A stretch of 64,000 bases of DNA from Escherichia coli (GTDB lineage Bacteria; Pseudomonadota; Gammaproteobacteria; Enterobacterales; Enterobacteriaceae), in the NCBI RefSeq assembly GCF_009931435.1, contig NZ_CP043414.1; one strand, 5' to 3'. The notes beneath the pieces were generated by a model. That model worked only from the letters and a program-made list of their open reading frames with translations. It searched no databases and was not told the DNA's origin. Below, in pieces: positions 14,865-33,600 of the stretch (position 1 is its first letter; each line of letters opens with the position of its first letter). The position numbers and the translations under genes are program-made.

Positions 14865-15851
14865 TTAAACCACCCGATCCAGCCCCAACATGCCGCGAGC
14901 CTGAATGAAACAGAGCAGCAACGTTCCCCATAAGGCCATCGTCAGGTAGGGGCTTATCCCGAGAATATTGAAGCCGCTTTCAATAATTTGCAGAAGAAAC
15001 AGCGCCAGCACCATACCAATTATCCGCCCGCTGCCGCCGTCCGGATTAACCCCGCCGAGTACTGCCGCGAGGATTGACACCAGCAAGTACGATTCGCCAT
15101 AAGAGGCCTTAGCCGAGTTGAGTTTCGACATCATCAAAAATGCCGCTACCGCACAAAGCAAGGCGGAAATGACATACACCCATATCAGCACCCGACGCGT
15201 GTTAATACCGGAGTAAAGTGTTGCTCGTTCGTTAGAACCAATCAGATAAATGGATTTACCGAGCGGCGTTTTCTCCAGCAATATCCACAGCCCCAGCGCC
15301 ACTGCGGTAAACAACCACATCGGTAGCGGAATACCGAACCACTGTGCATGATTCAACCACAGCACCCATGAGGGATAATTGGCAATGGCGCTACCGCCTG
15401 TCACCAGAATATTTACCCCTTTGAGCAACGTCATCATCCCAAGCGTTGCAAGAATTGGCGACACTCGAATACCGGCAATCAATACGCCATTACATAAACC
15501 AATTATCACCGCCGCACCAGCGCCCGCCAGCAGCGTAGCGACAACCGTAGTAATACCCGGCGGATACTGAGTCGCCACCCACGCCATCACCAGTGAACAG
15601 GCGTTAGCGGTAGCAATAATTGACAAGTTAATGCCGCCACAAAGCATGGTCACCGCCATAGCCAACGCCAGAATGCCCAGCACGGGCATTTGCGAAGCGA
15701 CAGACTGGAAGTTACTTATCGACCAGAAAATCTCCGGCATAGTAATGCTGAACGCGGCAACAGTTAGCACCAGCAGGCCGATCAAATAAAACTCAACGTT
15801 ATTACGCCACGATTTTTTCATAGCAGACTCCGGTTCTGATGCTGACTCCAC
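14865..15851 (-). CDS. ABC transporter permease (RbsC/LsrD-like)
   Basis: 328-aa polytopic membrane protein; overlaps the upstream permease gene; part of a 4-gene ABC operon. Confidence 0.8.
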   Translation of the reverse strand: MESASEPESAMKKSWRNNVEFYLIGLLVLTVAAFSITMPEIFWSISNFQSVASQMPVLGILALAMAVTMLCGGINLSIIATANACSLVMAWVATQYPPGITTVVATLLAGAGAAVIIGLCNGVLIAGIRVSPILATLGMMTLLKGVNILVTGGSAIANYPSWVLWLNHAQWFGIPLPMWLFTAVALGLWILLEKTPLGKSIYLIGSNERATLYSGINTRRVLIWVYVISALLCAVAAFLMMSKLNSAKASYGESYLLVSILAAVLGGVNPDGGSGRIIGMVLALFLLQIIESGFNILGISPYLTMALWGTLLLCFIQARGMLGLDRVV

Positions 15852-16789
15852 GCCGTGGCACTAATGCTGGCAACGATGATGATGCCTGTGATCAATGTTT
15901 GCCAGTAAGACGAGACTCCCAATAAATTTAGCCCGTTTTGCATCACTGCCAACAACACCACGCCGAGCAAAGTACCGGTTAACGTGCCGCGCCCGCCGAG
16001 CAAACTAGTGCCGCCAAGCACCACCGCAGCCAGTACTGTCAGCTCATAACCCAGAAGAGAATCGGGGGCGACAGTCATCACCGTCCACGACTGCACTACA
16101 CCCGCAGCACCAGACATCAATCCCATATAGCCGTAAACGAAAAGTTGCAGTTTCAGCACGCTAAAGCCGATGCGACTGGCTGATTCACGGTTCCCGCCAA
16201 GGGCATAAATTTTGCGCCCTACACTGGTGAAATTCATGATAAACGCTGTCAGCAGCACCACCGTAATCATGGCGATCAGCGGCAGACCAAGGCCATAGTC
16301 ATAGCCGTCAACATCGGTGTACTTGAACAACATTACCCCCTGCTCAAACCACGGCGGAAAGTCGTACAGCCACACACCTTTACTCAACCATAACAGCAGG
16401 CCATAGAAAATATTCAGCGTCGAAATGGTGATGATGATAGAAGGCACCCGTAGGCGATTAACCAGTAAGGCGTTTATTAAGCCAAGTAAAATGCCGATGC
16501 CGCCCGCCAGGGCAAACGCGACAGCAAAGTTGCCACCCATTTTTTGTAGCAACAGCACCATGCCGTATTGCGCAATGATGGTCATTGCTGGAAACGAAAT
16601 ATCAATTCCACCGGAAATTAACACCACAAACAAACCACAGGCGAGAATAGTCAACATGGCATAGTTATTGGCGAGATCGTACAAATTACCGAATGTCAGA
16701 AACTCGTCGCTGCGCCAGGCAAGGCCAACAAACAGCACTATAATCAGTAATGCCAGCCAGAATTCATGACGTTTTTTCAGTTCAGCCAT
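15818..16789 (-). CDS. ABC transporter permease (RbsC/LsrC-like)
   Basis: 323-aa polytopic membrane protein; overlaps the ATPase gene by 8 nt. Confidence 0.8.
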   Translation of the reverse strand: MAELKKRHEFWLALLIIVLFVGLAWRSDEFLTFGNLYDLANNYAMLTILACGLFVVLISGGIDISFPAMTIIAQYGMVLLLQKMGGNFAVAFALAGGIGILLGLINALLVNRLRVPSIIITISTLNIFYGLLLWLSKGVWLYDFPPWFEQGVMLFKYTDVDGYDYGLGLPLIAMITVVLLTAFIMNFTSVGRKIYALGGNRESASRIGFSVLKLQLFVYGYMGLMSGAAGVVQSWTVMTVAPDSLLGYELTVLAAVVLGGTSLLGGRGTLTGTLLGVVLLAVMQNGLNLLGVSSYWQTLITGIIIVASISATAWSQHQNRSLL

Positions 16790-18281
16790 TTACCACCTCC
16801 GCAATCCTGGCCTGAGAACTGCTGTCAGGCAGGAAGCTATGGGTGATCTGACCTTTTTGCATTACCAAAATCCGGTGGCTTTGATACCACGCTTCTTCAA
16901 TTTCATCGCAGATCATCAATACCGCAATGCCATGAGCCGCCAGATCGCTGATAATGCCGTATATTCCTGCTTTGTTGGCGATATCAACACCGACAGTCGG
17001 GCTATCGAGAATCAACAGTCGTGGCCCAATCGCCAGCCATTTGGCGATCGATACTCGCTGCGCGTTACCCCCGGAAAGCGTATTCACCGGGAGATGTGGG
17101 TCAGAGACTTTGATGGTCAATGCCTTAATTAGCCTGTCCACCAGGTCACGCACTTTAGCTTCACTCAGAAAGCCGAAGCGATCTTTTACCTTGTGAAAAA
17201 CAGTGCTAATGATGTTGTCTTCAATAGATTGCGCCATCACCAAACCGCGCGACATGCGATCTTCCGAAACATAACCAATACCGTGGCGGATGGCGTCCTG
17301 GTTACTATGCAGTGTAACCGGCTGACCGTTGATGAGGATCTCACCAGCATCCGGTCGGGTCATACCAAACAGACTCAGACATAATTCCGTGCGCCCCGCA
17401 CCAAGCAGGCCAACAATCGACACCACTTCGCCCGCTTCCACCCGCAAGTTAATATTTTGATATTCCCCATGACGACTTAAATTACGCACCTCCAGCACTG
17501 GGGTGCTGGATTTTCCCTGCCACAACTCTCGCACCTGATATTCAAACTCCTGGCCGGTCATCAGGAAACCGAGTTGTTTTGTGGTCATCTCTGCAGCCGG
17601 AAAGGTCCCGACCAGCTCACCATCTTTCAACACTGAAATACGGTCGGAAACTTCCATCACCTCTTCCAGACGATGACTGACGAAGACCACGCAGATCCCG
17701 CGTTCCCGCAATTGATGCACCACCTGTAATAACCCTTGCACTTCCTGATGGGTCAGCGAAGCGGTTGGTTCATCCATCACGATCAACCGTGCGTCCTGCG
17801 CCAGTGCACGGCAAATTGCCACCAGCTGACAGCGGGCAATTGAAAGCTCAGAAACGAGCGTATCCAGTGGCAATGTGACGTTAATACTGGTCATTGCCGC
17901 CTGCGCCACCTCACGCAGACGACGTCGGTTAACAAACAGTCCGTGGTGATAGTGATTCACGGCGATATTCTCCCAGACACTCAGGTTAGGAAATAAAGAG
18001 AGGTCCTGATAAATCACCTGAATCCCCTGCGCCACCGAAGCGGCGGGTGTCAGCTTTGACCAGTTTTTCCCACCAAGCGTAATTTCCGCCCCCTCATCCG
18101 GGCGATAAACACCGGACATAATTTTAATCAACGTCGATTTACCACAGCCGTTTTGCCCGGCAAGGCAGTGCACCTCACCCGACATAAAGTCGAGAGAAAC
18201 ATCGCGCAGCGCTCGCGTGGCATGAAACGTTTTGTTGATATGACGAAGGGAAAGGAAGGTTTCCATAGCATCCCCTGGCAA
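16782..18281 (-). CDS. ABC transporter ATP-binding protein, fused double cassette (RbsA/LsrA-like)
   Basis: 499 aa with two Walker A motifs (GQNGCGKST and GLLGAGRTE) and Walker B LIVMDEPTASL. Confidence 0.88.
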   Translation of the reverse strand: MPGDAMETFLSLRHINKTFHATRALRDVSLDFMSGEVHCLAGQNGCGKSTLIKIMSGVYRPDEGAEITLGGKNWSKLTPAASVAQGIQVIYQDLSLFPNLSVWENIAVNHYHHGLFVNRRRLREVAQAAMTSINVTLPLDTLVSELSIARCQLVAICRALAQDARLIVMDEPTASLTHQEVQGLLQVVHQLRERGICVVFVSHRLEEVMEVSDRISVLKDGELVGTFPAAEMTTKQLGFLMTGQEFEYQVRELWQGKSSTPVLEVRNLSRHGEYQNINLRVEAGEVVSIVGLLGAGRTELCLSLFGMTRPDAGEILINGQPVTLHSNQDAIRHGIGYVSEDRMSRGLVMAQSIEDNIISTVFHKVKDRFGFLSEAKVRDLVDRLIKALTIKVSDPHLPVNTLSGGNAQRVSIAKWLAIGPRLLILDSPTVGVDIANKAGIYGIISDLAAHGIAVLMICDEIEEAWYQSHRILVMQKGQITHSFLPDSSSQARIAEVVNG

Positions 18282-18314
18282 TAAGAATCGGGGCTTTCGC
18301 CCCGAAGAAATGGA

Positions 18315-19301
18315 TTAATAAAGTGAGTCAATATTGTCTTTGTTGACCAGTAATACCTTATGGAAACGGATAATTCGCTTATCCATATCTACGTCGGCCT
18401 TACCGAGATTCTCCATTTCTAATCCAGGTTTGATCTCTTCACCCTTCAGCAACGTGCTGGCGACGGCCGCGAGTGCGTAACCTGCAGAGGCCGGATCGTA
18501 AGTAATCCCTTCGGTGATATCACCACTTTTAATCAGTGATGCCGCCTGTGAAGGGATCATCATGCCATAGACTGCGACTTTATTTTTCGCCCGTTTCTCT
18601 TTCACTGCACGTCCCGCGCCAATCGGACCGTTTGAACCAAAGGAGACAACCGCTTTCAAGTCAGGATAGGTTTTCATGAGGTCCAGTGTGGTACGACGTG
18701 AGTCATCCACACTCTCGGCAACCGGCATGCGGCGGGTAACTTCATGCATATCCGGGTAATGCTCTTTCTGGTATTTCACCAGCAAGTCAGCCCATAAGTT
18801 ATGCTGCGGCACGGTCAAACTACCCACGTAAATCACATAGCCGCCCTTGCCACCCATGCGTTTCGCCATATGTTCAACATATTCAGCGGCAAATTTTTCG
18901 TTATCAATGATTTCGATATCCCAGTTAGCACTTGGCTGACCGGGGGATTCGTTGGTCAGAACCACAATTCCGGCATCTCGCGCTTTTTTGAATACCGGTT
19001 CCAGCACGTTGGCATCGTTTGGCACGATAGTAATTGCGTTAACCTTACGAGCGATTAAATCCTCAATAATTTTAACCTGTTGAGGAGCATCAGTACTTGA
19101 AGGTCCCACCTGTGACGCATTAACACCAAAGGCTTTACCTGCCTCGACCACACCTTCGCCCATGCGATTAAACCACGGCATACCATCGACTTTAGAGATA
19201 TTCACCACGACTTTTTCCGCTGCCTGGAGCGGCGAGGAAATTAGCGCAGCGCCTAATAACAGCGAAGACACCATATTGATAACAAAACGTTTATTCATCA
19301 T
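18315..19301 (-). CDS. Periplasmic substrate-binding protein of the ribose/AI-2 (LsrB-like) class
   Basis: 328 aa with signal peptide MMNKRFVINMVSSLLLGAALISSPLQA; the C-terminal ...VLLVNKDNIDSLY resembles the LsrB C-terminus as recalled. Confidence 0.8.
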   Translation of the reverse strand: MMNKRFVINMVSSLLLGAALISSPLQAAEKVVVNISKVDGMPWFNRMGEGVVEAGKAFGVNASQVGPSSTDAPQQVKIIEDLIARKVNAITIVPNDANVLEPVFKKARDAGIVVLTNESPGQPSANWDIEIIDNEKFAAEYVEHMAKRMGGKGGYVIYVGSLTVPQHNLWADLLVKYQKEHYPDMHEVTRRMPVAESVDDSRRTTLDLMKTYPDLKAVVSFGSNGPIGAGRAVKEKRAKNKVAVYGMMIPSQAASLIKSGDITEGITYDPASAGYALAAVASTLLKGEEIKPGLEMENLGKADVDMDKRIIRFHKVLLVNKDNIDSLY

Positions 19302-19551
19302 TTCAGCCTCATTGCAGGGTAGTCAGGAAGTGTTCGCCCAAATTAGCGCGCTGGAGAGAATAAGAATTTTCGAATATTTTTATGCAGAATAAACAGCCCT
19401 ATTTCAGGCAGCTATTAAAAATTTGGTTATAAATATGGACAAAATGGGCAGCAACAATAAGTGTGACATTCATCACGTAAAAAATAGTAAAACAAACACA
19501 ATTAACGATATTTTATGTTTGTGAGTTTATTTCATGCGGATAGAGAGTTAT

Positions 19552-19962
19552 CTACACAACTTCAATGAGGGCATATTCTTCAAAAATAACGTCCATTTCG
19601 GGTGAATAGCTTCCCTCTGCCTGGAAAAAACGACGGTGTTCATTGCGCCAATATTCAAGACTAAGATCACCTTCACCTTCCTTGCGGGCAATCTCTTCGG
19701 TGACATCAGAAAAGCGCAGTAAATGCAGGCCAATCACTCTGATAACACATACAGGCTCACCACGGCTATTTTCTACAATCTTATACTCGCCAATCATCGG
19801 AAATGCGTTGTCTTCAATACATCCTGCCAGCGAACCACAGGAAGCAGTTTTAACACCAGTTGCAATCAACGTTGCGAGGTAATCGGCCAACGCTGCTGAA
19901 TCGCCAAAACTACAAAAGGAAGCATGGGGATATTTTTGTGAGATTTTTTCTTTTATGGTCAT
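19552..19962 (-). CDS. Small cytoplasmic protein, possibly ASCH-domain
   Basis: 136 aa when started at MTIKEK (11th codon of the 146-aa ORF); family assignment is from pattern recall only. Confidence 0.5.
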   Translation of the reverse strand: MTIKEKISQKYPHASFCSFGDSAALADYLATLIATGVKTASCGSLAGCIEDNAFPMIGEYKIVENSRGEPVCVIRVIGLHLLRFSDVTEEIARKEGEGDLSLEYWRNEHRRFFQAEGSYSPEMDVIFEEYALIEVV

Positions 19963-20260
19963 GGCAATATTTTCGCGATAACAGAACAACAAATTACATC
20001 TTAATTACTGTCGATAACTATCAGCAAGAGGATCATTGGTTTTTCTATGTTTAATCTTTTTTATCCGAAGCAGGTCACATTTATGGCTTGATAAATACCT
20101 TTGTTAAAACTCACTTTTGTGTATTTCTCTCAAATAATCCCCTGGAAATTATGCCGGGAGATTATAAAGTTCAGGATCATTCATTAACAAACCATTCCCG
20201 CCCCACTCCCTGGGGCTTAAATCTCTTACTATTCACCGTTGCAGGCGTTTCAAATTCGTA

Positions 20261-21643
20261 TCAACCTGCCACACTCCCCCACACCAGTTGCCCTTTATGG
20301 AACGTCGCCGTTCTCGGCGAGATACGCGCCACCGCCTCGGCAGAACAGGAGGCGTCCACCAGCACAAAGCTGGCGTCATCCTGCGCTTTTGGCCACACAC
20401 GCTCGCCTTTTTCATTTAGCGGCAACACATCGCCAGTGGCTAAAAACAGCGAGCGGGATAAATTCTGTTCGTTAGGACGAATATAGAGCTGCGCATACAG
20501 ATTGGCTTTTTCCAGCATGTCGCCCAGGCCGTAAGGCGACCAGTGGTCGATAACGCTGTCGGTGCCGGTCATCACTTTTACACCTTTGTCATGTAGCTGT
20601 TTGAGCGGCATATGCAACGTGCCAATCGGCACCGTCGAGGCGATAGAAATTTGCTGCGCCGCCATCCGGTGCGCCAACTCATCGACCTGTTGCTCGTTGA
20701 GCGTTGCCAGCGCAAAGGCGTGACTGATGGTCAGCTTGCCCTTCAGCTGCGGCGTTTTCTCTACCGTTTCAACCATATAATTGATGGCTGCCACGCCCGC
20801 CGGAGTGGTTTCGTGCAGATGAATATCGACGCCTTTGTCGTAGTCCAGCGCAATCTGGAACATGGTGTCGAGGGATTTTTCCATCGCGCCATCAACACTG
20901 GTCGGGTCCAGCCCGCCGACGTAATGCGCGCCTGCCTGCATTGCTTCACGCATCAAGGGTTCCGATTTCGACAGCAGCAAACCGTGCTGCGGGAAGGCGA
21001 CGATTTCACACTCGAAGCCCGCCTGACGTCGCGCCAGCACCGCCTGCAAATTTTGCAGATTTTTCAGGCCGGAAACCGGTTCGATATTGCAGTGGCTGCG
21101 GGCAATGGTGGTGCCTTTCGACTGCAATAAATCGATCAGTTTTTCTGCCCGCTCCTGAGTGTACGGTTGTAACTCCGGCAGCATTTTCTGCTCGAGTTTG
21201 ATCATGTCCTGGATGGTGGTGCCTGCCGGGCGATTGAGCGAGCGCCACGGTCCGCCGTAAAAGGTTTTGTCGAGATGAATATGCATGTCGCGAGTAGTGG
21301 GCAGCATCAGCTTACCGCCAGCGTCATATTGCGGCAGCGTGGCGTCCGGATGCTGCTTGTTCTCATGTAGCACAACAATTTTACCGTCCTGAATCTCCAC
21401 GGTCTGGCGCGCCGTGCGGGTCTGCACCGCCACACCGTTTTCGTAGTCAAAACCGGTTTCCAGCAGCACGTTATCAAGATAGTAATGCGGGTCAGTGATT
21501 TTCATGGTGTTATTCGCGTCGCAGTGGGTTGTGCCAGAGACCTCCGCATGGGCGAATGGCACAGAGGTACCAAACAGCGCGGCGGCGGTGACCATCTTAC
21601 CGCTCTGGCTCAGAAATTCACGGCGGCTATTGTTTTTTTTCAT
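20261..21643 (-). CDS. yahJ: Metal-dependent amidohydrolase/deaminase with twin-arginine (Tat) signal peptide (YahJ-like)
   Basis: 460 aa; N-terminus MKKNNSRREFLSQSGKMVTAAALFGTSVPFAHA carries the S-R-R-x-F-L Tat motif; HIHLD and DIHLHET metal-binding motifs as in the CodA/AtzC family. Confidence 0.82.
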   Translation of the reverse strand: MKKNNSRREFLSQSGKMVTAAALFGTSVPFAHAEVSGTTHCDANNTMKITDPHYYLDNVLLETGFDYENGVAVQTRTARQTVEIQDGKIVVLHENKQHPDATLPQYDAGGKLMLPTTRDMHIHLDKTFYGGPWRSLNRPAGTTIQDMIKLEQKMLPELQPYTQERAEKLIDLLQSKGTTIARSHCNIEPVSGLKNLQNLQAVLARRQAGFECEIVAFPQHGLLLSKSEPLMREAMQAGAHYVGGLDPTSVDGAMEKSLDTMFQIALDYDKGVDIHLHETTPAGVAAINYMVETVEKTPQLKGKLTISHAFALATLNEQQVDELAHRMAAQQISIASTVPIGTLHMPLKQLHDKGVKVMTGTDSVIDHWSPYGLGDMLEKANLYAQLYIRPNEQNLSRSLFLATGDVLPLNEKGERVWPKAQDDASFVLVDASCSAEAVARISPRTATFHKGQLVWGSVAG

Positions 21644-21652
21644 CTTACGTCC

Positions 21653-22603
21653 TTACGTTTTAATAATATGGGTGCCCGTTTCGCCACGCAGCGCCGCGGG
21701 CAGGCATTCCGGCGTGGTGATAATCACTTCTTTACCGCCCTGTTCCAGGAACGTCAGGCTGGCGATGATTTTTGGCAACATGCTGCCTGGCGGGAAATGC
21801 CCTTCCTGCATATAGCGGGTCATGGTGGCAATATCCACCCGATCCAGCGCCTGCTGCTGCGGTTTGCCAAAATGAATACACACTTTTTCGACGCCAGTGG
21901 TGATCACCAGAATGTCGGCGTGAATTTCACGGGCCAATAGCGCGGTAGAGAGATCTTTGTCGATAACCGCGTCCACGCTTTGGTAATCCCCCGCTTCACT
22001 GCACACCACCGGAATTCCACCGCCGCCCGCGCCAATTACCACAAAGCCTTGTTGGATCAGCGCCTTAATGGCAGGTGCTTCGACAATACGTTTCGGTTCC
22101 GGCGAGGCGACCACGCGGCGATAGCCGCGTCCGGCATCTTCAACAAAACGCCAGTCAGGGTTTGCCTTTTGTAATTCGTTACGCTGGCTTTCACTGAAGA
22201 ATGCGCCAATGGGCTTGGTGGGGTGAGCAAATCCCGGATCGTTTTTATCCACTTCCACCTGAGTCACCACGGTGACGGCTTTTTTCTCGCCGTGGCGCGC
22301 CAGCCGATTGTTCAGCGCCTGTTGGATCAAGTAGCCAATGCCGCCTTGCGTATCCGCCACACAGTTCGCCAGCGGCGTTAAGGGCAGCCCTTCGCGCTCG
22401 TGGGCAATCTCCGCACGGCGTAGATCCAGCCCAACCTGCGGCCCGTTGCCGTGGGTCAGCACAATGTCGTAATCGGAAGCCAGCATTTCCAGCACCGTAT
22501 CGGCGACGGCCTTCACCGCCTCCGCCTGATGCTCAATCGACTGGCTGGCGTTATCTTTGATAATGCTGTTGCCACCAATGGCAACGACCACAAGTTCTTT
22601 CAT
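21653..22603 (-). CDS. yahI: Carbamate kinase family protein (YahI-like)
   Basis: 316 aa; N-terminus MKELVVVAIGGNSI typical of the amino-acid-kinase/carbamate-kinase fold. Confidence 0.82.
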   Translation of the reverse strand: MKELVVVAIGGNSIIKDNASQSIEHQAEAVKAVADTVLEMLASDYDIVLTHGNGPQVGLDLRRAEIAHEREGLPLTPLANCVADTQGGIGYLIQQALNNRLARHGEKKAVTVVTQVEVDKNDPGFAHPTKPIGAFFSESQRNELQKANPDWRFVEDAGRGYRRVVASPEPKRIVEAPAIKALIQQGFVVIGAGGGGIPVVCSEAGDYQSVDAVIDKDLSTALLAREIHADILVITTGVEKVCIHFGKPQQQALDRVDIATMTRYMQEGHFPPGSMLPKIIASLTFLEQGGKEVIITTPECLPAALRGETGTHIIKT

Positions 22604-22609
22604 GTTGTT

Positions 22610-23105
22610 ATGTCCGCTACAGAGGGTGATGGGGTTATGACCAACGCCAGACAGCCTGATGCGCTACGCTTATCAGGCCTACAGATTCTTGTGCCATTCG
22701 TAGGCCGGATAAGGCGTCCACGCCGCATCCGGCAATGGTGACAAATGCCTGATGCGCTACGCTTATCAGGCCTACAGATTCTCGCGCCACTCGTAGGCCG
22801 GATAAGGCGTTCACGCCACAACCGGCAATGGTGACAAATGCCTGATGCGCTACGCTTATCAGGCCTACAGATTCTTGTGCCATTCGTAGGCCGGATAAGG
22901 CGTCCACGCCGCATCCGGCAATCGTGACAAATGCCTGATGCGCTACGCTTATCAGGCCTACAGATTCTTGCGCCACTCGTAGGCCGGATAAGGCGTTCAC
23001 GCCGCATCCGGCAATGGTGACAAATGCCTGATGCGCTACGCTTATCAGGCCTACAGATTCTCGCGCCACTCGTAGGCCGGATAAGGCGTTCACGCCACAT
23101 CCGGC
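22610..23105. repeat. BIME/REP array, five tandem units with a period of about 92-95 bp
   Basis: GCCTGATGCGCTACGCTTATCAGGCCTACAGATTCT...GTAGGCCGGATAAGGCG...GCATCCGGCAATGGTGACAAAT repeats starting near 22652, 22747, 22840, 22933 and 23025. Confidence 0.85.
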
Positions 23106-23118
23106 ATGAACATGTCAG

Positions 23119-24537
23119 TCAGACGCCGTAACGTTCGCACCAGCCAAGAATGGCTTTCTCGAAGCAGGCGAATGGTGGATGCACAATGCCCGCGCCAATC
23201 ATGCCGACGCCTGCATCTTTATGGGCAATGGCGGTGTTGATCACCGGCAGAATGCCACTGCTACCCACGCGGGTGATGTCGATTGCCGTCGGCACACCCA
23301 TAAAACCGAGCAGCGGAATGGTCACGTTGGGGTTTTCGCCGAGAGTGATTTCGCACATCTGACGGGAGAAATCGATAGCCTCTTCCACCGTACCGCCCAC
23401 CAGCGCGACGATTGCAGGCGCGGTCGCCATAGCAAATCCACCAATGCCGTAGGTTTCGGTGATGGCGCTGTCGCCAATATCCAGCCCCGAATCTTCCGGC
23501 TTATAACCGGCAAACATCGGGCCGATGACCTGTTGCGCCGGGCCGGTAAACCACTGCCCCGGCAGGCCGCTGACTCGCAGGCCGAACTCGACACCATTAC
23601 GCGCCATCGTGGTCACCACGGTGCTGTATTCGATGCCGTGCGCCGCATCCATCGCCGCTTTACACATCGCCATCCACGTCGGGCCGGAGAAGTAGTCGCT
23701 GCTGGCGACAAACTCAAACACTTCGCGCTGTTGCTCGACGGAATAACCCGCCTGAATAATCCCCGGCGTCAGCGCCTGAATCAGCAGCGTCGTCCCGGCG
23801 TTATTGCGGTTATGGCATTCATCGCCCATATGCAGCGCCTGCGCCAGCATCAAGCGCAGATCAATCTCACCGAGAATTTTCATCGCGTCACGCAGCATTG
23901 GCCCCTGCACATCGCGCATCCAGTTGAGGCGGTCAATCACGCTCTGATCGTTGGCACCCATACGCAAAATCTTCGCCATCTGCTCGCTCATATTGGTGTA
24001 AGCGATGTTGCCGAAGGTTTTGTTTTTCACGATGTGCATAAACATCGAGGCAGAGGTAACACCCGCCATCGAACCCACGCAGTCATGCTCGTGGCACGGC
24101 GAGAAAGTGATCTCCCCGGAAGCCGCCAGTTCAGCCGCCTCGTCAAGATCTTTCGCCAGCCCTTCGAACACCAGCGCCCCGGTGACCGCGCCTTTCATCG
24201 CGCCGCACATTTTTTCCCAGGTCACTGGCGGCCCGGCGTGAAGAATGGTTTTCACCGTCATGCCTGGCACCACGTTAATCGCCTGATCAAAACCAATCAG
24301 CACCGGATGCGACTGGATAATGCGTTCCAGCGCCTGCTGGTTAGCGGCGGCGATTTTGTCTGCCAGCGGCGAATCGGCAATGTTGTCCAGTGCCTGCACC
24401 ACCTGCATATTGCCCTGCCCCGGCGGCGTCCAGTCGAGTTGGGTTACTTCTACATGCTGCTTTTTCAGATCATCGCTAAACATAGCGATGCCGACATTAA
24501 TAACGTTCAACGGTTGGCTAAACAGTGACTGGCTCAT
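23119..24537 (-). CDS. yahG: DUF1116-family protein (YahG-like; paralogue of YlbE)
   Basis: Start placed at MSQSLF (8th codon of the 479-aa ORF), giving a TGATG stop/start overlap with yahF. Confidence 0.75.
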   Translation of the reverse strand: MSQSLFSQPLNVINVGIAMFSDDLKKQHVEVTQLDWTPPGQGNMQVVQALDNIADSPLADKIAAANQQALERIIQSHPVLIGFDQAINVVPGMTVKTILHAGPPVTWEKMCGAMKGAVTGALVFEGLAKDLDEAAELAASGEITFSPCHEHDCVGSMAGVTSASMFMHIVKNKTFGNIAYTNMSEQMAKILRMGANDQSVIDRLNWMRDVQGPMLRDAMKILGEIDLRLMLAQALHMGDECHNRNNAGTTLLIQALTPGIIQAGYSVEQQREVFEFVASSDYFSGPTWMAMCKAAMDAAHGIEYSTVVTTMARNGVEFGLRVSGLPGQWFTGPAQQVIGPMFAGYKPEDSGLDIGDSAITETYGIGGFAMATAPAIVALVGGTVEEAIDFSRQMCEITLGENPNVTIPLLGFMGVPTAIDITRVGSSGILPVINTAIAHKDAGVGMIGAGIVHPPFACFEKAILGWCERYGV

Positions 24538-26084
24538 CAGGCTTCCTCCCCTTTGCAAATAAATTCACGCGCCAGCAATCCGGTATTGGTGCTGCTGCTG
24601 GCCAGAATCACCCCGGCATCAAGCAGCATCTGGCTTTGTTGTGCTAACGATGGCGTATCGAGATCGGTACCCAGCACATAGGCGAGAATGATCAACTCGC
24701 GGCCTTCGGCGGCAGCGATCGCTTTCGCTTCTTTGATCGCCTCGATGGTGGAACCGACCGGATCTTCATGCGATCCAAATCCGAGCACAAAATCCATCAC
24801 GATCACCGCCACTTCTGGATCGCGCGCTTCTTCGATCAACCGGCTGATGCGGTTGGTGGGGTCAATCATTGGATGCGGCTTGCCGTTGGTGAAGTCGTCA
24901 TCGCCAAAGTCGAGGAAGGTGTGTTTGATGCTGCGGTTGATATCTTGCAGGCGGAATTCCGGATCGGGCTGAATGTTGCTGTAGACATCGCCATGTTTTT
25001 CCATCACCGCGAACATGGTTTCGTCACACAGCGTACCGCCGCAGAACAGTCCTCGAATGTATTTCTGCTGCGGTTGCAGGCGAGCGCGCACGTCAGCAAT
25101 CAACGGCTGGTTCAGCGTATGCAGCTCGAGATGTTCCTGTTTCACGCCGGAGAGCATCACCGCTTTCAATGCCGCCTCTTTACTGCCGCGGGCAAACTGT
25201 AGCCCCTGCTCATCCACTGGTGTTTCGCCACGGCCGAGGAAGCAGACCACCACCGGCTTGCGGCAGGCGCGTGCGCGTTCCAGCACTTTGCGGGCCACCG
25301 CAGGCGCAGGCGGTTTGGAGATAAGTACAATGATTTCAGTTTGCGGATCGTTTTCCAGCATCCCGATGGCGTCGAGCATCATCAGGCCGCCGATTTTCTC
25401 GCTCAGGTCGCGCCCGCCGGTGCCAATCAGTTGCGAAATGCCGCCACCAAATTCATGAATGCGGACGCTCAGCTCCTGGCTACCGGTGCCGGATGCGCCA
25501 ACAATACCGATGTTGCCGCGACGCACAGCGTTACCAAAGCAGAGCGCCGCGCCGTTGATAATCGCCGTGCCGCAGTCTGGCCCCATCATCAGCAGCCCTT
25601 TTTCGTGGGCCAGTTGCTTGAGCGCCAGTTCATCTTCAACTGAGACATTATCGGAAAACAGCATCACGTTAAGATCGTTTTGCAGCGCCTGACGTGCTTC
25701 GCGAGCGGCAAACAGACCGTTGACCGAAATCACTGCCAGGTTATTTTCCGGGATATGCTTTTTGGCGCTGGCAATCGTGGCATAACGCGCCTCGTGCGAG
25801 CCGCTTTGCGCTTTGCTGTTGAACAGTTCTTCAATCTCCACCAGCAACTGCTCGTTGTCTGCGCCCGCTTTGCCGTTGATGACAATCATCAGGTCGCCGT
25901 TTTTCGCCTGCTCCAGCTCCGGCGTCAGCAGCCCTAAATTCTTCAGCACGCCTTTGTTCATTTCTGTCGCCATCGCCACAAATGCCTGCTCGACGCCGTC
26001 GAGTTTATTTGCACGCGTGGAGATAGACATCAGCGAGACAGAATCAAAATAGGTATTCGGTTTAATGACTATTTTAACTGACAT
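24537..26084 (-). CDS. yahF: FdrA-like protein, CoA-binding/succinyl-CoA-synthetase-like fold (YahF-like)
   Basis: 515 aa with glycine-rich nucleotide/CoA-binding segments (GIVGASGTG, LFCGGTL); overlaps yahE and yahG. Confidence 0.8.
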   Translation of the reverse strand: MSVKIVIKPNTYFDSVSLMSISTRANKLDGVEQAFVAMATEMNKGVLKNLGLLTPELEQAKNGDLMIVINGKAGADNEQLLVEIEELFNSKAQSGSHEARYATIASAKKHIPENNLAVISVNGLFAAREARQALQNDLNVMLFSDNVSVEDELALKQLAHEKGLLMMGPDCGTAIINGAALCFGNAVRRGNIGIVGASGTGSQELSVRIHEFGGGISQLIGTGGRDLSEKIGGLMMLDAIGMLENDPQTEIIVLISKPPAPAVARKVLERARACRKPVVVCFLGRGETPVDEQGLQFARGSKEAALKAVMLSGVKQEHLELHTLNQPLIADVRARLQPQQKYIRGLFCGGTLCDETMFAVMEKHGDVYSNIQPDPEFRLQDINRSIKHTFLDFGDDDFTNGKPHPMIDPTNRISRLIEEARDPEVAVIVMDFVLGFGSHEDPVGSTIEAIKEAKAIAAAEGRELIILAYVLGTDLDTPSLAQQSQMLLDAGVILASSSTNTGLLAREFICKGEEA

Positions 26085-26937
26085 AATTCCCTCCGTAGGT
26101 TTGGCTCAGCGCACAACCATCGGCCATGCCATACAGCATGTCGCAGCCGGAACTGGAGCCAATATGTTTAATTTTTTCTATTGCCTGAGTTGCGTTCCCA
26201 GGTATGTCATAAATAATGTTATGAATAAAACGATGAATATTTTCCCGGCAGCGTTGTTGTAATGCGGCTTCCAGCGTTATGGCACTTAATAACGTGGTAT
26301 TATTTCTGCCGTGTTGCAGACCGAGATAAAATTCCTCTTTGTATTTTTCCGCCGGATGCCCAGGAACAAATAAAATAAGCGCCAGACCTGTTAAATAATC
26401 GTCGGCTGATGGCGTAAGGCCAATCCCTAACCCCATCATACTGACGACCGCTGAGGCGATATTTTGTTTATCGTTTACGGCCTGAATAACTGCCCGTCGT
26501 TTAATATGTAATTCTTTATTTAACGCCTGATAAAACGGATTATCGCCGCGATAATTAAACAGGGTTTCATTTTCCCCCAGGTGCTGATGAATAATGTCGT
26601 GCCACTGTTGCCAGGCGATAAGGTGAAAATTTTCAGCGGTCATTTGCAAAGCTGGGGACAGCCAACGCTGGCAATGACTCATCTCTATATGAAGATGTTG
26701 ACCAACCGTAATACCTTGATCATCAAACTGAACCTTATCACCATGACGGAACAGACCATCAAAGTGAGTGAGTGCCAACCGACAACTGTTTGGCGCATTG
26801 TCGTACTCTTCACAAAGCAGCGTTAGCAACTGCTGGCGAACCGGGAGTGCGATATTTACCGCTCTGGCAAAGACCTGTTCAACCTGTCCTTGCCCCCGCT
26901 GTACCAGAAAATCTGCATCCGCAGTTAGCGCCCACAC
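26074..26937 (-). CDS. yahE: DUF2877-family protein (YahE-like; paralogue of YlbF)
   Basis: 287-aa ORF overlapping the yahF start by 11 nt; synteny. Confidence 0.7.
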   Translation of the reverse strand: MWALTADADFLVQRGQGQVEQVFARAVNIALPVRQQLLTLLCEEYDNAPNSCRLALTHFDGLFRHGDKVQFDDQGITVGQHLHIEMSHCQRWLSPALQMTAENFHLIAWQQWHDIIHQHLGENETLFNYRGDNPFYQALNKELHIKRRAVIQAVNDKQNIASAVVSMMGLGIGLTPSADDYLTGLALILFVPGHPAEKYKEEFYLGLQHGRNNTTLLSAITLEAALQQRCRENIHRFIHNIIYDIPGNATQAIEKIKHIGSSSGCDMLYGMADGCALSQTYGGNYVS

Positions 26938-26976
26938 ACACCGTCTTTCTGGTGTGTTGATAGCAAACCTCCCGGT

Positions 26977-27582
26977 TTATGCGCCTGCGGCAATCAGCAA
27001 CTGAGCAATCTCTTCAAAGCCCCGTTCCCGTGCCAGTTCCAGCGGCGTTTTACCATATTTATCCGTCATGTGCGGGCTGGCACCGTGTTCCAGCAATAAC
27101 TGGACAATCGCCTGCTGTTTTATCCCGCCATCATTAAGCACAATTGCTTCCAGTAGCGGCGTCCAGCCAACATGGTTGGTCTGGTTAACGTTAATCTCCG
27201 TATGCGCCAAAAGCTCTTTTACAATACTTAAATGGCCTTTTTCACAGGCAGGCGTCAGGCCGACACCGCCGAAACGGGTTACACAATTAAGGTCTGGTTT
27301 AGCCGGTAAAATAATCCGTAACAGGGTTAAATCGCCGGTCAGGCAGCTCATTAAAAAAGGATTTAAACAGGTCTGGTCTTGTTTATTAATATCCGCACCG
27401 GCATCAATTAACGCCTGAACGCAAGCATATTGCTGATATAAACTTGCCAGCGTAATTGCCGTTTTCCCCTGGCGATCGCAGGTATTAATATCGACACCCA
27501 GAGCAAGGCAGGCTTTTACTTTATCGATATCACCCTGTTGCGCAGCCAATAAATAGTCGGCAGGTAGATTTTTTATACTCAT
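26977..27582 (-). CDS. yahD: Ankyrin-repeat protein (YahD-like)
   Basis: Repeated ankyrin motifs (G-TPL--A...LL--GAD-N); start placed at MSIKNL. Confidence 0.8.
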   Translation of the reverse strand: MSIKNLPADYLLAAQQGDIDKVKACLALGVDINTCDRQGKTAITLASLYQQYACVQALIDAGADINKQDQTCLNPFLMSCLTGDLTLLRIILPAKPDLNCVTRFGGVGLTPACEKGHLSIVKELLAHTEINVNQTNHVGWTPLLEAIVLNDGGIKQQAIVQLLLEHGASPHMTDKYGKTPLELARERGFEEIAQLLIAAGA

Positions 27583-27839
27583 TAACATTCCCCTGGTTTT
27601 TGTGGCTGTTTTCGATGAATTGAGAATAGCAACGATAATCTGATAAAAGAACCCGCTTAAATTTAATTCGCCGTATTTCGCCTTTTTGTTGAATGATGTT
27701 CAACAATCTTTTCGCAGTGTGCGGTAGTGCAATATTTGTTTCTTTGACCCGATACCCTTCCACTCAATCAGGTTTTATTTCTCTATAGTCTGCACATGTA
27801 AGAGTAGCTTTCGTCCATGTCTAACCAGAGGGGAACAAG

Positions 27840-28337
27840 ATGAACGGACTCACGGCAACGGGTGTCACCGTCGGTATTTGTGCAGGGCTTTGGCAGTTAG
27901 TGTCTTCACATGTTGGGCTTTCTCAGGGATGGGAATTATTAGGAACCATTGGCTTTGTCGCCTTTTGCAGTTTTTATGCCGCAGGCGGCGGTAAATCGGG
28001 GTTTATCAGAAGCCTGGCGGTTAATTATTCCGGGATGGTGTGGGCGTTTTTCGCCGCGCTGGCTGCCGGTTGGCTGGCCTCGGTGAGTGGGATTTCCGGC
28101 TTCTGGGCGAGCGTGATTATGACTGTACCCTTCTCGGCGGTGGTGGTCTGGCAAGGACGTTTCGGTTTACTGTCTTTTATTCCCGGAGGCTTTCTCGGCA
28201 TGACGCTATTTTTTGCCAGCGGGATGAACTGGACGGTGACATTACTGGGTTTTCTGGCGGGTAACTGCGTGGGGATAATTTCAGAATATGGCGGACAAAA
28301 ATTAAGCGAAGCGACGACTAAACGCGACGGGTATTAA
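27840..28337 (+). CDS. yahC: Small inner-membrane protein (YahC-like)
   Basis: 165 aa with about 4 hydrophobic segments; divergent from yahD. Confidence 0.7.
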   Translation: MNGLTATGVTVGICAGLWQLVSSHVGLSQGWELLGTIGFVAFCSFYAAGGGKSGFIRSLAVNYSGMVWAFFAALAAGWLASVSGISGFWASVIMTVPFSAVVVWQGRFGLLSFIPGGFLGMTLFFASGMNWTVTLLGFLAGNCVGIISEYGGQKLSEATTKRDGY

Positions 28338-28428
28338 AAGTTATTCAAAAATGATTATCTATCTTTAACCGATACCTCTACAGTCATAGCTGGAGAAATT
28401 CATAGTAGATAATGGCGGGAATGGTTTA

Positions 28429-29361
28429 ATGAACTCAATTTTTACCGAAGAGAATCTGTTGGCATTTACTACCGCTGCGCGTTTTGGCAGCTTCAGTAAA
28501 GCCGCAGAAGAGTTGGGTTTAACCACTTCCGCCATTAGCTACACCATCAAGCGAATGGAAACAGGGCTGGATGTGGTGCTGTTCACTCGCAGTACCCGCA
28601 GCATTGAGTTAACGGAGTCCGGGCGTTATTTTTTCCGCAAAGCTACCGACCTGCTGAATGATTTTCACGCCATCAAACGCAGCATCGATACTATTTCGCA
28701 GGGCATAGAAGCGCGTGTGCGTATTTGTATTAATCAGCTGCTTTATACGCCCAAACACACCGCACGCTTATTACAGGTACTGAAAAAGCAGTTTCCAACC
28801 TGCCAGATTACCGTCACCACCGAAGTGTATAATGGCGTCTGGGATGCGATTATTAATAATCAGGCGAATATCGCTATCGGCGCACCCGACACGCTGCTGG
28901 ACGGCGGCGGCATTGATTACACGGAGATTGGCGCGATTCGCTGGGCTTTTGCTATCGCCCCGGATCACCCGTTAGCCTTTGTGCCGGAACCCATCGCCGA
29001 AAGCCAACTGCGTCTCTATCCTAATATCATGGTGGAAGACACCGCGCATACGATTAATAAAAAAGTGGGCTGGTTGCTGCATGGGCAGGAGTCGATTCTG
29101 GTGCCAGATTTCAACACCAAATGTCAGTGCCAGATTTTAGGCGAAGGAATTGGTTTTTTGCCGGATTACATGGTCCGCGAGGCGATGGCGCAAGCGCTAC
29201 TGGTTACCCGACAAATTCATAACCCGCGCCAGGATTCGCGCATGTTACTGGCAACTCAACACTCTGCCACCGGTCAAGTGACGCAGTGGATTAAAAAGCA
29301 GTTTGCGCCAAAGGGTATATTAACAGGGATCTATCAGGATTTACTGCATCGGGAGAATTGA
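28429..29361 (+). CDS. yahB: LysR-family transcriptional regulator (YahB-like)
   Basis: 310 aa with N-terminal HTH ...FGSFSKAAEELGLTTSAISYTIKRME... Confidence 0.85.
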   Translation: MNSIFTEENLLAFTTAARFGSFSKAAEELGLTTSAISYTIKRMETGLDVVLFTRSTRSIELTESGRYFFRKATDLLNDFHAIKRSIDTISQGIEARVRICINQLLYTPKHTARLLQVLKKQFPTCQITVTTEVYNGVWDAIINNQANIAIGAPDTLLDGGGIDYTEIGAIRWAFAIAPDHPLAFVPEPIAESQLRLYPNIMVEDTAHTINKKVGWLLHGQESILVPDFNTKCQCQILGEGIGFLPDYMVREAMAQALLVTRQIHNPRQDSRMLLATQHSATGQVTQWIKKQFAPKGILTGIYQDLLHREN

Positions 29362-30632: not shown

Positions 30633-33600
30633 TCAGAATTGCCACTTAATGCCCACCATTGCAGAGGTGTCATTATATCCTCTATCGGCAACCTGAACGC
30701 CCACATTCCCCCAGACATTCAGGTTGGCATTTAGCTGTCCTTCCACCCCGGTTTTTATCTCAGCAATATTTCGGGCGCCATCCTGAGTGACGGAGACGCC
30801 ATCCATGCTGGTGCTGAAATCCTTACTGTTATGCAGCCAGTTCACTTCTACAAACGGCTGGAACTCGCGGGATTTACCCTCATCCATTTTATGGTGGCTC
30901 TTCAGCCAGGTTTTTACGCCAAGTCGGGTTTGAACATTGCCATCACCGTTGCTATGAACGAGGGTTCCGTTGCTTTCGCGGTGATTATCGGCTTTGACTC
31001 CCATCCAGGTAACCTGTGCTTGCGGCTGAACATACCATTCATTACGCGTTCCCTGGCTGCCATTAAATTCAGCTAATTTGTGTTTGTATCCAGCTTCCAG
31101 TGAAGCGGTAAATCCTTTTGATTTATAGGATTCACTTTGTAAGTCATCCCCTTTCACTGTGTTATCAAACCAACTGTACTGCGCCCAACTGTCGAGATAC
31201 GCGCCATTACGCGACTCGTCATCGGCATACCAGGTGGCATAGAGGCCTGTGCTATATCCGTTCACACTCGCTTTTGCACGATAACCAGTTCGCGAGGAAA
31301 TGGTTTTGCTGTCGCTGTTGCCATATCCCGCCATGACCCCAACATGCCAGCGATCGCTGCCGTTTTGGCTCCACTGCGCGATATCGCCTCCCAGTTGCAG
31401 AACATAGCGATTGCTTTGGGTTTTCAGCTGGCCGCTGCCATCACGCCATTTATTATGACCACCTTCATGGCGCATCCACATAGTGGTTTGTTTCTGCTCA
31501 CCCGTCACCATGTCGGTATAGTACGTATTACCCAGACGCTCATGCAGACGCGTGTTGAACATGGTATTCGCTGCTGCAAGGTTCGCAATGTAGCTACCCG
31601 CCTCCGGTCGCAGGTCATTATCCACATTCAGATCCGGACCCGGCGTAGGTGTCGGGTTAGGGTTCGGCTCTGGATTCGGGTTTGGCTCCGGATTCGGCAT
31701 CGGGTCGGGCTCCGGCTGCAGTTCAGGAGAATCACTGCCGCTGGTCAGATACCAGTTACCGCTATTTGCCCCCTGTCCACGCGCGAGAGTGTAGTCATAT
31801 GCCCCCGCAACGATACGCCCAGCCTGAACAAATTCGCCCTCAGACTTACCGTCTACATGGATAAGTTCGATACCGTTAAGGGTTTTCGCACCTGTACCGC
31901 CAGCGTTATTCACCGTAACGGCAGTCGTGCCGCTAGTATCGCCCTCGACAACCAATTTATCGGTTACTGAGTCATCGCCATTCAGTACCGTATTCATTAC
32001 TAGTTGACCGTTATTACCGTGGTAGTTCCCCTTCACCACCAACACGTTGCCAGCTTGCTGTCCTGACATTCCGGTCATCAGCGTACCGTTGTTGGTCAGA
32101 TTGCCACCCAGGGTGTAATTCACTGGTGCAGCCGCTCTTTTTTCAGCGCTATTATTCAGCGCCAGGGTGCCGTTGTTCTCAATGTTTGCGTTACCCATTC
32201 CCTGCGCATGACTAACCAGGACATTAGCCGAGCTAGCAATGTTCACATTCGCCGTCAGGTTGCTATTATCGCCCGCTATGTCCAGCGTGCCGCCCTGGAT
32301 ATTCAGTTCCCCGTCGCCGCTTAACGAACCGCTTGAAGTCCCCCCGTTGGCAACCGTCAGAGTGCCGCCGTTTAAGTTCAGCAACGAATCGGCGCTAGCC
32401 TTGAGCGTACCCACGGTCTGGCTGTGACCATTCATATCCAGTTCAGTCTCTGCCGCCAGACGCAGTTCATGGGTATTACCCAACACGTTATCGTTATTCA
32501 ACAAAAGCGTCCCGCTACGCAGATCGGTAACACCGGTATAGTCATTGTCTTTGTTTGAAAGCGATACGGTCTGACCTTTCTGGCTGCTGAAGGCCAGGTC
32601 ACCACTGCCGGTAACCTTTGCACTGAGATCGGCGGCATTCTCGCTCTTACCGTTGGCACTCAGCACCAGGGCGTCACTGTCGGTAGCCTGCAAATCAAGC
32701 TGGGTCAGGCCGTAACCGATATACAGACCGTCATTGTTTACCCCACTCGTCAGGCGATAATCATAAGTGCCGACGGCCGCTTTTTGCCCATTCTGCTGAA
32801 TATCACGCTGTGATCTGCTGGAGAGGATTTGCCCATTTTTATTCTGTAGTTGAAGATTACCCGCATCCCCCAGAACTTCCGCACCCTGTGCATCAACCAG
32901 CTTAATGGTGCTGTTACCATCATCGACTTCAGTGAGCGATAACGCAGAGTCAATATCACGAGAAACAGAGCGTACAACGTCACTGTCAGTAACCTGAATC
33001 ACACCCTCGCCGCGCAAATCCAGCGTTTTACTAACGTTGACCGTCCCTTCTGTCATCTGCGCGCCAGCGGCCAGGGCACCAAAATCAACGGTTCCGCCCG
33101 AGAATCCCAGAGTGCTAATGGAGTGAGCGCCCTTACCCACTGTTATCTGGCTTCCCTGACCCGCAGTGATCCCGCCTTTCTGCAGAAACTCAGCATTTTT
33201 TTCCAGGTTAAATGTCGTGTTCTGGAACGCCAGTGAACCCTGGAACCAGTCTGTATAAGCAAACTCATCGAAGGAGAATTCGTGATTCCCCATGTTTATT
33301 TCAACAATGCCTTTACCTTCAAGATCGTTATCAAATACCCAATCTTTGTTGGCATTAATTTGCAGTTTGCCATCAACATCCAGTTCTGCACGGCCGATGT
33401 TCTTATCTTCAGAAATAACAGCGACAGCATCGGAAGCGACATCAATATATCCGCTGAATGCATAGTTATTGCCGGTCAACTCCACCGTCCCACTGTCGAT
33501 ACTTATTGTACCGTTGCCGGAAATCTTATTGGCAAAGGTCATGCTATCGTCAGCCTTCAGGTGTAATTTCCCGCGGTTGGTGATTTCTGCTGTACCTATA

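Follow-up and report, generated by a model that had tools for sequence, protein, structure and literature searches.

The yah cluster of Escherichia coli, a candidate catabolic system of the AllFGH-carbamate kinase kind

The yah genes are considered here in a stretch of 64,000 nucleotides of Escherichia coli DNA (assembly GCF_009931435.1, contig NZ_CP043414.1), below called the window. The cluster consists of yahD, yahE, yahF, yahG, yahI and yahJ on the minus strand and the divergent genes yahC and yahB. We propose, with a probability of about 0.55, that it encodes an ATP-yielding route for a nitrogen-rich, nucleobase-like compound, which would follow the logic of AllFGH and AllK and act on a different ureide. 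The candidate transferase subunits and the kinase are related to AllF, AllG, AllH and AllK, and the module is usually accompanied by the genes of an ankyrin protein, of a permease of the nucleobase type and of a hydrolase resembling deaminases. The cluster is already known and annotated, functionally it is an orphan, and it is best classed with the AllFGH-carbamate kinase kind.

AllFGH was identified in 2024 as the oxamic transcarbamylase, which converts oxalurate and phosphate to carbamoyl phosphate and oxamate (PMC11326118), and AllK is the carbamate kinase acting with it (PMC9843812). The oxamate carbamoyltransferase step, to which an earlier note on the same DNA had linked this trio of families, is now experimentally established for AllFGH. 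The note had suggested that the yah genes carry out an analogous route of ring opening, carbamoyl transfer and carbamate kinase action on another nitrogen-rich compound. The carbamate-yielding outline, similar to that of AllFGHK, stands, whereas ring opening by YahJ fared less well and a transporter had been missed. The yah genes are mentioned in neither of the two papers. No function for any yah gene was found in the literature searched, as the note had stated, and a 2024 survey of the y-ome lists yahC, yahE, yahG, yahH, yahI and yahJ as an uncharacterised cluster.

Transferase subunits and the carbamate kinase homologue

Compared with the proteins of E. coli K-12, YahF is 39% identical to AllF (2e-102), YahG is 45% identical to AllG (1e-119), YahE is 25% identical to AllH (6e-10), and YahI is 38% identical to AllK over the full length (2e-57). 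All four similarities are significant. Together with the family matches they confirm the paralogy with the allantoin cluster that had been claimed for the trio and the kinase. YahF scores 490.6 bits with the NCBIfam FdrA model NF004760 (cut-off 433) and matches the FdrA structure 3dmy in PDB (1.6e-82), and its orthologues carry the domains PF27530, PF02629 and PF00549. YahE carries PF11392 (AllH/DUF2877, 3e-28), and PF06545 (AllG/DUF1116) is present on all close homologues of YahG. YahG shares approximately 70% identity with PDB entry 3clq, an uncharacterised protein that we take to be from an Enterococcus-like organism.

By its sequence, YahI is a carbamate kinase homologue. It scores 644.9 bits with PRK12352, a carbamate kinase subfamily (cut-off 266), is marginally below the cut-off of TIGR00746 arcC (346.8 bits against 358.25), and matches solved carbamate kinases in PDB with E-values from 4e-83 to 8e-60. 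The GGN, HGNGPQVG and IDKD motifs, for the nucleotide and carbamoyl phosphate, align with those of AllK and are conserved. Nothing of what the note had named as refuting its reading was observed.

The boundary between the F and G genes is shifted relative to AllF and AllG. The C-terminal tail of AllF/FdrA (about 45 residues) is absent from YahF and is homologous to the first 55 or so residues of YahG. A search among 1.8 billion representative proteins (50%-identity clusters) produced many apparent AllF-AllG-type fusions of about 1000 residues with the AllG-like domain at the C-terminus (e.g. P0252, P0254, P0256, P0257). The fusions, the shifted boundary and the one-nucleotide overlap of yahF and yahG suggest that F and G function as a single unit.

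In RefSeq, YahF is named an acyl-CoA synthetase. It indeed matches the domains of the succinyl-CoA synthetase alpha subunit (1e-19 in NCBIfam, 3e-17 in PDB), and one could imagine a true acyl-CoA synthetase that makes the CoA ester of an organic acid, with a kinase that is unrelated or anabolic. The catalytic phosphohistidine of the succinyl-CoA synthetase alpha subunit is the histidine of the GHAGA loop. However, when E. coli SucD is aligned with YahF, AllF and related proteins, these have Tyr, Phe or Arg opposite this histidine (MGHAGA). Moreover, no beta (ATP-grasp) subunit is present, and the closest characterised relative, AllF, belongs to a transcarbamylase and not to a ligase. The name is doubtful, as the SucD catalytic histidine is conserved neither in YahF nor in AllF, and is probably wrong; a genuine synthetase role is most improbable. 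A literature match that presented yahF as a gemcitabine-resistance gene was dismissed as a junction artefact.

Sequence comparison delineates the yah module as a discrete, highly conserved clade, with YahG the most conserved protein. YahG identity is 88% in Aeromonas, Atlantibacter and Buttiauxella, 79% in Janthinobacterium, and 76-77% in Brevibacillus, Paenibacillus and Psychrobacillus; the closest YahG in the species-level genome collection is that of Escherichia whittamii (99%). Between E. coli and Brevibacillus, the identity is 77% for YahG, 68% for YahF, 57% for YahI, 53% for YahD and 26% for YahE. The yah type forms a single 50%-identity cluster, the next relatives, AllG included, being 44-50% identical. 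Signature peptides of the yah type occur in 470 species genomes from Proteobacteria to Bacillales. About 90 yah-type loci were compared; the counts of gene layout given below refer to the 81 loci that contain yahD, yahF, yahG and yahI by tblastn.

YahE is a fast-evolving subunit that is dispensable in some lineages. The yahE gene is missing from 22 of the 81 loci, which are otherwise intact, mainly in Enterobacter, Leclercia, Lelliottia and relatives (an example is L053:7400-8460); Silvania, Huaxiibacter, Aeromonas cavernicola and Serratia are also among them. The distance between yahD and yahF is then 109-147 bp in all loci except two, 286 bp in Aeromonas cavernicola (L081) and 513 bp in Serratia (L069).

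One possibility is that YahDEFG and YahI are a second oxamic transcarbamylase with its kinase, serving other conditions or external oxalurate, for example from oxidised urate. The four protein families and the gene logic are the same, and the regulator YahB resembles AllS. The loci of Bacillales, with PucR, an NCS1 carrier similar to allantoin permease and a guanine-deaminase-like enzyme, have the look of purine catabolism. The protein of the 3clq type is encoded in an Enterococcus-like locus, and it was in a streptococcus that the activity of oxamic transcarbamylase was measured for the first time (PMC11326118).

On the other hand, no homologue of ureidoglycolate dehydrogenase, allantoinase or ureidoglycine hydrolase lies near the yah loci: tblastn with AllB, AllD and AllE of K-12 found nothing in the window or within 10 kb of the approximately 90 loci, and AllC found a single distant M20 peptidase (33%). 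E. coli mutants deleted for allF, allG or allFGH make no oxamate, although their yah genes had been left in place (PMC11326118). Thus yah is no substitute for the oxalurate enzyme in these strains as tested, yah expression being uncontrolled there. The identity of 25-45% to AllFGH, compared with 68-88% among yah types across phyla, points to a distinct, constrained specificity. Finally, the constant deaminase-type hydrolase, ankyrin protein and permeases have no role in oxalurate breakdown. A second oxalurate enzyme is therefore an unlikely explanation, although a serious one.

The parallel with the allantoin cluster extends to the regulator, as the best family match of YahB is AllS. In NCBIfam, AllS (6.4e-80) is followed by PunR (8.7e-71), and YahB stays under the cut-off of either model. 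Nearly all proteobacterial loci have a YahB orthologue (69-98% identical) beside the module; in the literature (ChIP-exo, surveys of LysR proteins) YahB is listed only as a candidate regulator. YahD has ankyrin-repeat matches. In Aeromonas, Janthinobacterium and Brevibacillus the module begins with a YahD orthologue (53-72% identity). Fusions of the ankyrin (Ank) protein with tetratricopeptide repeats (Ank-TPR) were found in Psychrobacillus and Trichococcus, and probably occur in Sporosarcina, where a 389-aa gene product with no Pfam match occupies this position.

Locus organization and the missing permease

The features of the locus are listed in Table 1. The same genes with the same boundaries are present in the RefSeq annotation of K-12 and of E. 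coli chromosomes that match the window from end to end (100% of the length, 97.4% identity). The region is covered by at least 80% in 4924 of 5426 complete E. coli genomes. Gene order, strands and the divergent position of yahC and yahB, as seen in the list of open reading frames and in RefSeq, are those of the earlier note.

Table 1. Features of the yah locus, in positions of the window
Feature	Position	Strand	Description
yahJ	20261..21643	-	460 aa; predicted Tat-signal metal-dependent amidohydrolase, cytosine-deaminase/AtzC subgroup
yahI	21653..22603	-	316 aa; carbamate kinase homologue
REP/BIME tandem array ("yahH" of K-12)	22654..23106	no strand	between yahG and yahI
yahG	23119..24537	-	472 aa counted from ATG; AllG-like (DUF1116) subunit
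yahF	24537..26084	-	515 aa; AllF/FdrA-like; HMA-like N-domain, CoA-binding-like and ligase-CoA-like domains
yahE	26074..26937	-	287 aa, GTG start; AllH-like (DUF2877) subunit
yahD	26977..27588	-	203 aa; ankyrin-repeat protein, first gene of the block
yahD/yahC divergent intergenic region	27589..27839	no strand	presumed control region, by position
yahC	27840..28337	+	DUF1097 inner-membrane protein (RefSeq annotation)
yahB	28429..29361	+	LysR-type regulator, paralogue of AllS and PunR

The yahF/yahG junction reads gccTGATGagc, with stop and start codons overlapping by one nucleotide, and the overlap of yahE and yahF is 11 nt long (ATGTCAGTTAA). Both overlaps had been reported and are exact in the sequence. 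The gaps are 39 nt between yahD and yahE and 9 nt between yahI and yahJ. However, a 515-bp spacer filled by repetitive extragenic palindromic (REP) elements, which had been overlooked, separates yahG from yahI. Thus the string consists of two tight blocks, yahDEFG and yahIJ, rather than one uninterrupted operon, and co-transcription from yahD through yahJ, assumed earlier, is conjectural. A scan of the minus strand inside the gene string found no consensus terminator, which is weak evidence. Promoter-like sites were fewer than in shuffled sequences, with no strong site upstream of yahD and no consensus sigma-70 site in the yahD/yahC intergenic region. A promoter of yahC was reported in a Reg-Seq preprint. 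Fusions of YahI and YahJ (780 aa) are predicted in some ENA assemblies (P0121, P0122, P0124). As the two genes are 9 nt apart, these are probably read-through or assembly artefacts.

The REP array, also called a bacterial interspersed mosaic element (BIME), repeats a 93-bp unit 4.9 times in tandem, with 94% matches. A scan of this region of the window with Rfam yielded four matches of naRNA4, a nucleoid-associated RNA derived from REP elements, above the gathering score, and nothing else. The common enterobacterial layout is yahB <> yahD-yahE-yahF-yahG-permease-yahI-yahJ, with the gene of a 517-aa polytopic permease between yahG and yahI in 60 of the 81 loci. These 60 loci lack yahC. Conversely, 18 loci have yahC and no permease (Escherichia, Kluyvera, Pseudocitrobacter, Klebsiella/Raoultella and Citrobacter amalonaticus), no locus has both, and the three that have neither belong to Firmicutes. 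No relic of the permease gene was found in the REP spacer of the window. Thus Escherichia has lost the ancestral permease, has the REP array in its place, and carries YahC instead. Judging by this distribution, YahC may stand in for the lost transporter, or one ancestral swap may have spread through recombination.

The 517-aa protein is 65-85% identical from Proteobacteria to Psychrobacillus (e.g. L005:11540-13093 in Aeromonas, L004:11656-13209, L091:16436-17968). It has no match in Pfam at E <=10, none in NCBIfam, and none in a profile search of PDB at E <=10, and it appears to represent an unclassified transporter family. Its AlphaFold2 model is of low confidence (predicted local distance difference test score, pLDDT, of 54.5), and Foldseek matches it with BicA/SLC26, AZG, UraA and UapA. 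This resemblance to transporters of the UraA/AzgA/SLC26 type, with 7+7 helices, is only indicative.

The loss of the permease could mean that the cluster of Escherichia is a cryptic remnant, invaded by REP elements, rarely or never expressed and without a present-day physiological role. The permease of 60 loci is missing and the gap holds a REP array; no strong promoter-like site precedes yahD; the genes are listed as uncharacterised, and the sole known phenotype is that of a yahJ mutant of extraintestinal pathogenic E. coli (ExPEC), which is mildly outcompeted in mice (competitive index 0.70). However, all reading frames are intact, the overlaps that imply translational coupling are preserved, and the region is retained in the great majority of E. 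coli genomes, as given above. Further, the permease-less layout is common to several genera and always accompanied by YahC, which argues for substitution rather than decay. We consider a cryptic cluster rather improbable. It is in any case compatible with the ancestral function proposed here.

The window also contains genes outside the cluster. Between yahJ and yahK (14865-19992) there are an open reading frame with an ASCH domain (19552-19992) and a sugar-type ATP-binding cassette (ABC) transporter, with a rhamnose-/AI-2-binding-like binding protein (18315-19301), an ATPase (16782-18281) and two permeases (14865-16789). These genes are present in some E. coli (H1). They were rejected as parts of the system, since K-12 and all other genera lack them. 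Between pdeL and betT there is an insertion (30633-34640), missing from K-12 and from the E. coli record that matches best, with an open reading frame of 1335 aa for an autotransporter of the AIDA-I/MisL type. Another open reading frame, of 1417 aa (50881-55134), encodes an inverse autotransporter similar to intimin and invasin.

YahJ and the proposed pathway

YahJ scores 714.7 bits with the NCBIfam amidohydrolase model PRK06846. Its nearest solved relatives are the AtzC-like protein 6nbo (4e-44) and AtzC (2qt3), an N-isopropylammelide isopropylaminohydrolase, followed by the cytosine deaminase CodA. The active site was checked by alignment with the CodA encoded in the window itself (346-1644), a paralogue with 26% identity; codB and codA together occupy 346-2878. 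YahJ keeps the whole catalytic set of CodA, with the residues of the mononuclear metal site, that is H121, H123, Q219, H275, E278, H308 and D362 (HxH, substrate-binding Gln, HxxE, His and Asp). The closest characterised relatives, AtzC and CodA, displace an exocyclic amine and are not ring openers, and by homology this, rather than the ring opening ascribed to YahJ earlier, would be its likely chemistry. A deaminase-type role is also pointed to by the recurrence in Bacillales of an unrelated enzyme similar to guanine deaminase: four of the six Firmicute loci examined encode such an enzyme of the cytidine deaminase (CDA) fold, and no ring opener. Ring opening by YahJ is less likely but conceivable, since SsnA, which is distantly related within the broad group, cleaves a pyrimidine ring open (bioRxiv 10.1101/2025.04.24.650524).

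The N-terminus of YahJ (MKKNNSRREFLSQSGKMVTAAALFGTSVPFAHA) contains a twin-arginine motif SRREFL, a hydrophobic stretch and an A-H-A cleavage site. The signal for twin-arginine translocation (Tat) that had been noticed is therefore present, and the alignment has it on all proteobacterial orthologues, which suggests that the YahJ step is periplasmic in Proteobacteria, via predicted Tat export. YahJ has also been listed as a predicted Tat substrate (PMC7549933).

The yahJ gene follows yahI in 75 of the 81 loci. In Erwinia rhapontici (L007:8279-11389) there is a minimal locus, LysR <> yahD-yahJ, with an 8-nt overlap and none of the E, F, G and I genes, and in Shewanella (L008) YahJ occurs alone. 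Thus YahJ seems able to function without the transferase. The Erwinia pair had led to the idea that YahD is a Tat chaperone of YahJ, which was rejected since YahD orthologues occur in modules that have no YahJ.

Outside Enterobacterales the module has varying partners. In Aeromonas allosaccharophila and Janthinobacterium it consists of the LysR regulator, the ankyrin protein, H, F, G, the 517-aa permease and carbamate kinase, without YahJ. The loci of Brevibacillus and Paenibacillus contain H, F, G, an NCS1 carrier, carbamate kinase and the CDA-fold deaminase, and that of Brevibacillus also PucR and the ankyrin protein. Allantoin permease is the best family match of the NCS1 carrier. Psychrobacillus has the set of these two genera with the Ank-TPR fusion, PucR and, in addition, a homologue of the 517-aa permease, and Sporosarcina has a similar set with PucR and no adjacent carbamate kinase. 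In these four genera the CDA-fold enzyme is closest to guanine deaminase of B. subtilis (1.5e-31). In Trichococcus there are two cytoplasmic YahJ-like amidohydrolases, 36% identical (1e-88 and 5e-78), together with Ank-TPR, H, F, G and another membrane protein. A 422-aa protein with three tandem domains of the RidA/YjgF type is encoded after the module in Trichococcus collinsii (L093:12971-14239), which hints at an imine or enamine intermediate. No riboswitches were found upstream of the module with Rfam in six loci (four Firmicute and two proteobacterial).

Taken in order, the proposed steps are as follows. Firstly, YahJ, exported by the Tat pathway, would hydrolyse a C-N bond of an external compound in the periplasm. 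In the likeliest reaction, a ring of the cytosine, ammelide or guanine type would lose an exocyclic amino or alkylamino group, which would yield a ureide or N-acylurea function. In Bacillales, the CDA-fold enzyme would do the same conversion. Secondly, the product would be taken up by the 517-aa transporter with the putative UraA/AzgA/SLC26 fold in most Enterobacterales, by the NCS1 carrier in Bacillales, and perhaps by YahC in Escherichia. The match of the permeases with the allantoin permease family and, in Foldseek, with UraA, AZG and SLC26 is what suggests a nucleobase-like or ureide substrate. Thirdly, YahF and YahG as the catalytic core, assisted by YahE and YahD, may transfer a carbamoyl group to phosphate and release carbamoyl phosphate and an amide or amine. 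Finally, YahI would convert carbamoyl phosphate and ADP to ATP, CO2 and NH3. The genes would be switched on by YahB, acting like AllS. Gene content, homologies, catalytic residues, the Tat signal and the neighbourhoods kept across phyla are observed, and from them the reactions, the substrate type, the subunit roles and co-transcription are inferred.

Several observations weigh against this pathway. Two Firmicute loci have no adjacent carbamate kinase. The yahE gene is absent from the 22 loci described above, although allH is required for full activity of AllFGH (PMC11326118); given this loss, the subunit roles may differ from a model based on AllFGH. Erwinia and Shewanella keep YahJ in the absence of the transferase genes. 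If YahJ merely deaminates a stable ring, the cluster has no known ring-opening enzyme. In Escherichia, where the ancestral permease is gone, the cluster may no longer be fully functional. Lastly, the failure of yah to rescue the all mutants could simply reflect lack of expression.

A more tentative reading is that yah is a widespread, horizontally mobile pathway for a natural compound that would be new as a nutrient of bacteria, for example a cyclic or acyclic acylguanidine. The deaminase would convert it to an N-acylurea, and YahDEFG, as an enzyme of four components, would act on the latter by phosphorolysis. Candidates are compounds of the creatinine or glycocyamidine type, the ammelide or 5-azacytosine type and the guanylurea type, and products of oxidised guanine. 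If this were true, the AllF/AllG family would consist of general "ureide phosphorylases" feeding carbamate kinase. In an even bolder form, YahFG might open a cyclic acylurea by phosphorolysis, and YahI might harvest an N-substituted carbamoyl phosphate.

E. coli has three carbamate kinase clusters, of which allFGHK was solved in 2022-2024 and ygeW-yqeA (2,3-diureidopropanoate from urate) in 2025, and yah remains. It comprises eight or nine genes of the y-ome and occurs in about 90% of the complete E. coli genomes. Identification of the substrate would reveal a further nitrogen and ATP source of gut and soil bacteria. It would also show how wide the specificity is in the new three-subunit transcarbamylase family, whose members are now probably misannotated as acyl-CoA synthetases, and give roles to the ankyrin protein, the Tat-signal amidohydrolase, DUF1097 and the 517-aa transporter family. 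As the permease is lost, Escherichia is a poor model for the system, and Citrobacter, Enterobacter or Brevibacillus are better ones.

Comparison with known systems

The closest known system is AllFGH-AllK. Both have FdrA-like, DUF1116 and DUF2877 genes near a carbamate kinase, and related LysR regulators, AllS and YahB. However, the yah proteins form a separate clade (25-45% identity), the gene order is H-F-G instead of F-G-H, and what is a C-terminal tail in AllF stands at the start of YahG. Unlike AllFGH, yah has an ankyrin component, a deaminase-type hydrolase and dedicated permeases, is not accompanied by allantoin or oxalurate genes, and may dispense with the H subunit, as it does in 22 loci. 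Judging by linkage, by the separate clade and by the apparent lack of interchangeability with the all genes, yah is probably not an oxalurate-specific AllFGH orthologue.

In the pathway of 2,8-dioxopurine (urate), the carbamoyltransferase YgeW acts with the carbamate kinase YqeA (bioRxiv 10.1101/2025.04.24.650524). The likeness to yah is in the combination of catabolic carbamoyl transfer with a carbamate kinase, which there yields ATP from a ureide of purine origin, and in an amidohydrolase of the deaminase-like group, SsnA. In contrast to YahEFG, YgeW is the product of one gene and has the classical fold of aspartate and ornithine carbamoyltransferases (ATCase/OTCase), unrelated to the yah subunits. 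Moreover, the YgeW-YqeA pathway has reductive and ring-opening enzymes, which are absent from the yah cluster.

YahJ belongs to the same amidohydrolase subgroup as AtzC and CodA, with all catalytic residues conserved. Unlike CodA, to which it is only 26% identical, it has a Tat signal and an N-terminal extension of about 50 residues. It also has Ser in place of the specificity residue Asp of CodA, which we take to be Asp314.

More distant F-G pairs, all uncharacterised, occur beside other enzymes whose substrates are of the urea or cyclic amide type, which favours the proposed pathway. On a metagenome contig (L090:7614-11428), a ring-opening amidohydrolase of the AtzD/TrzD family is encoded directly upstream of AllF-like and AllG-like genes, and the genes adjoin an ABC transporter of the amide/urea type. 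This amidohydrolase is a member of the cyanuric acid hydrolase/barbiturase family PF09663 (3e-103), whose product is an N-acylurea, and the G protein is 48% identical to YahG. The locus may represent a counterpart of the system for cyanurate or barbiturate. An F-G pair lies beside an isochorismatase-type hydrolase in the ExPEC region GR29 (PMC12928451), and another one beside biuH, which encodes biuret hydrolase, in contigs of nitrifiers (PMC12625717). The sister clades differ from yah in that their F-G proteins are 44-50% identical to YahG and are accompanied neither by an ankyrin protein nor by a YahJ-type enzyme. Their likeness to yah lies in the neighbour of the F-G pair, an enzyme producing or processing an N-acylurea, and in many cases also in the presence of a carbamate kinase and an NCS1 permease.

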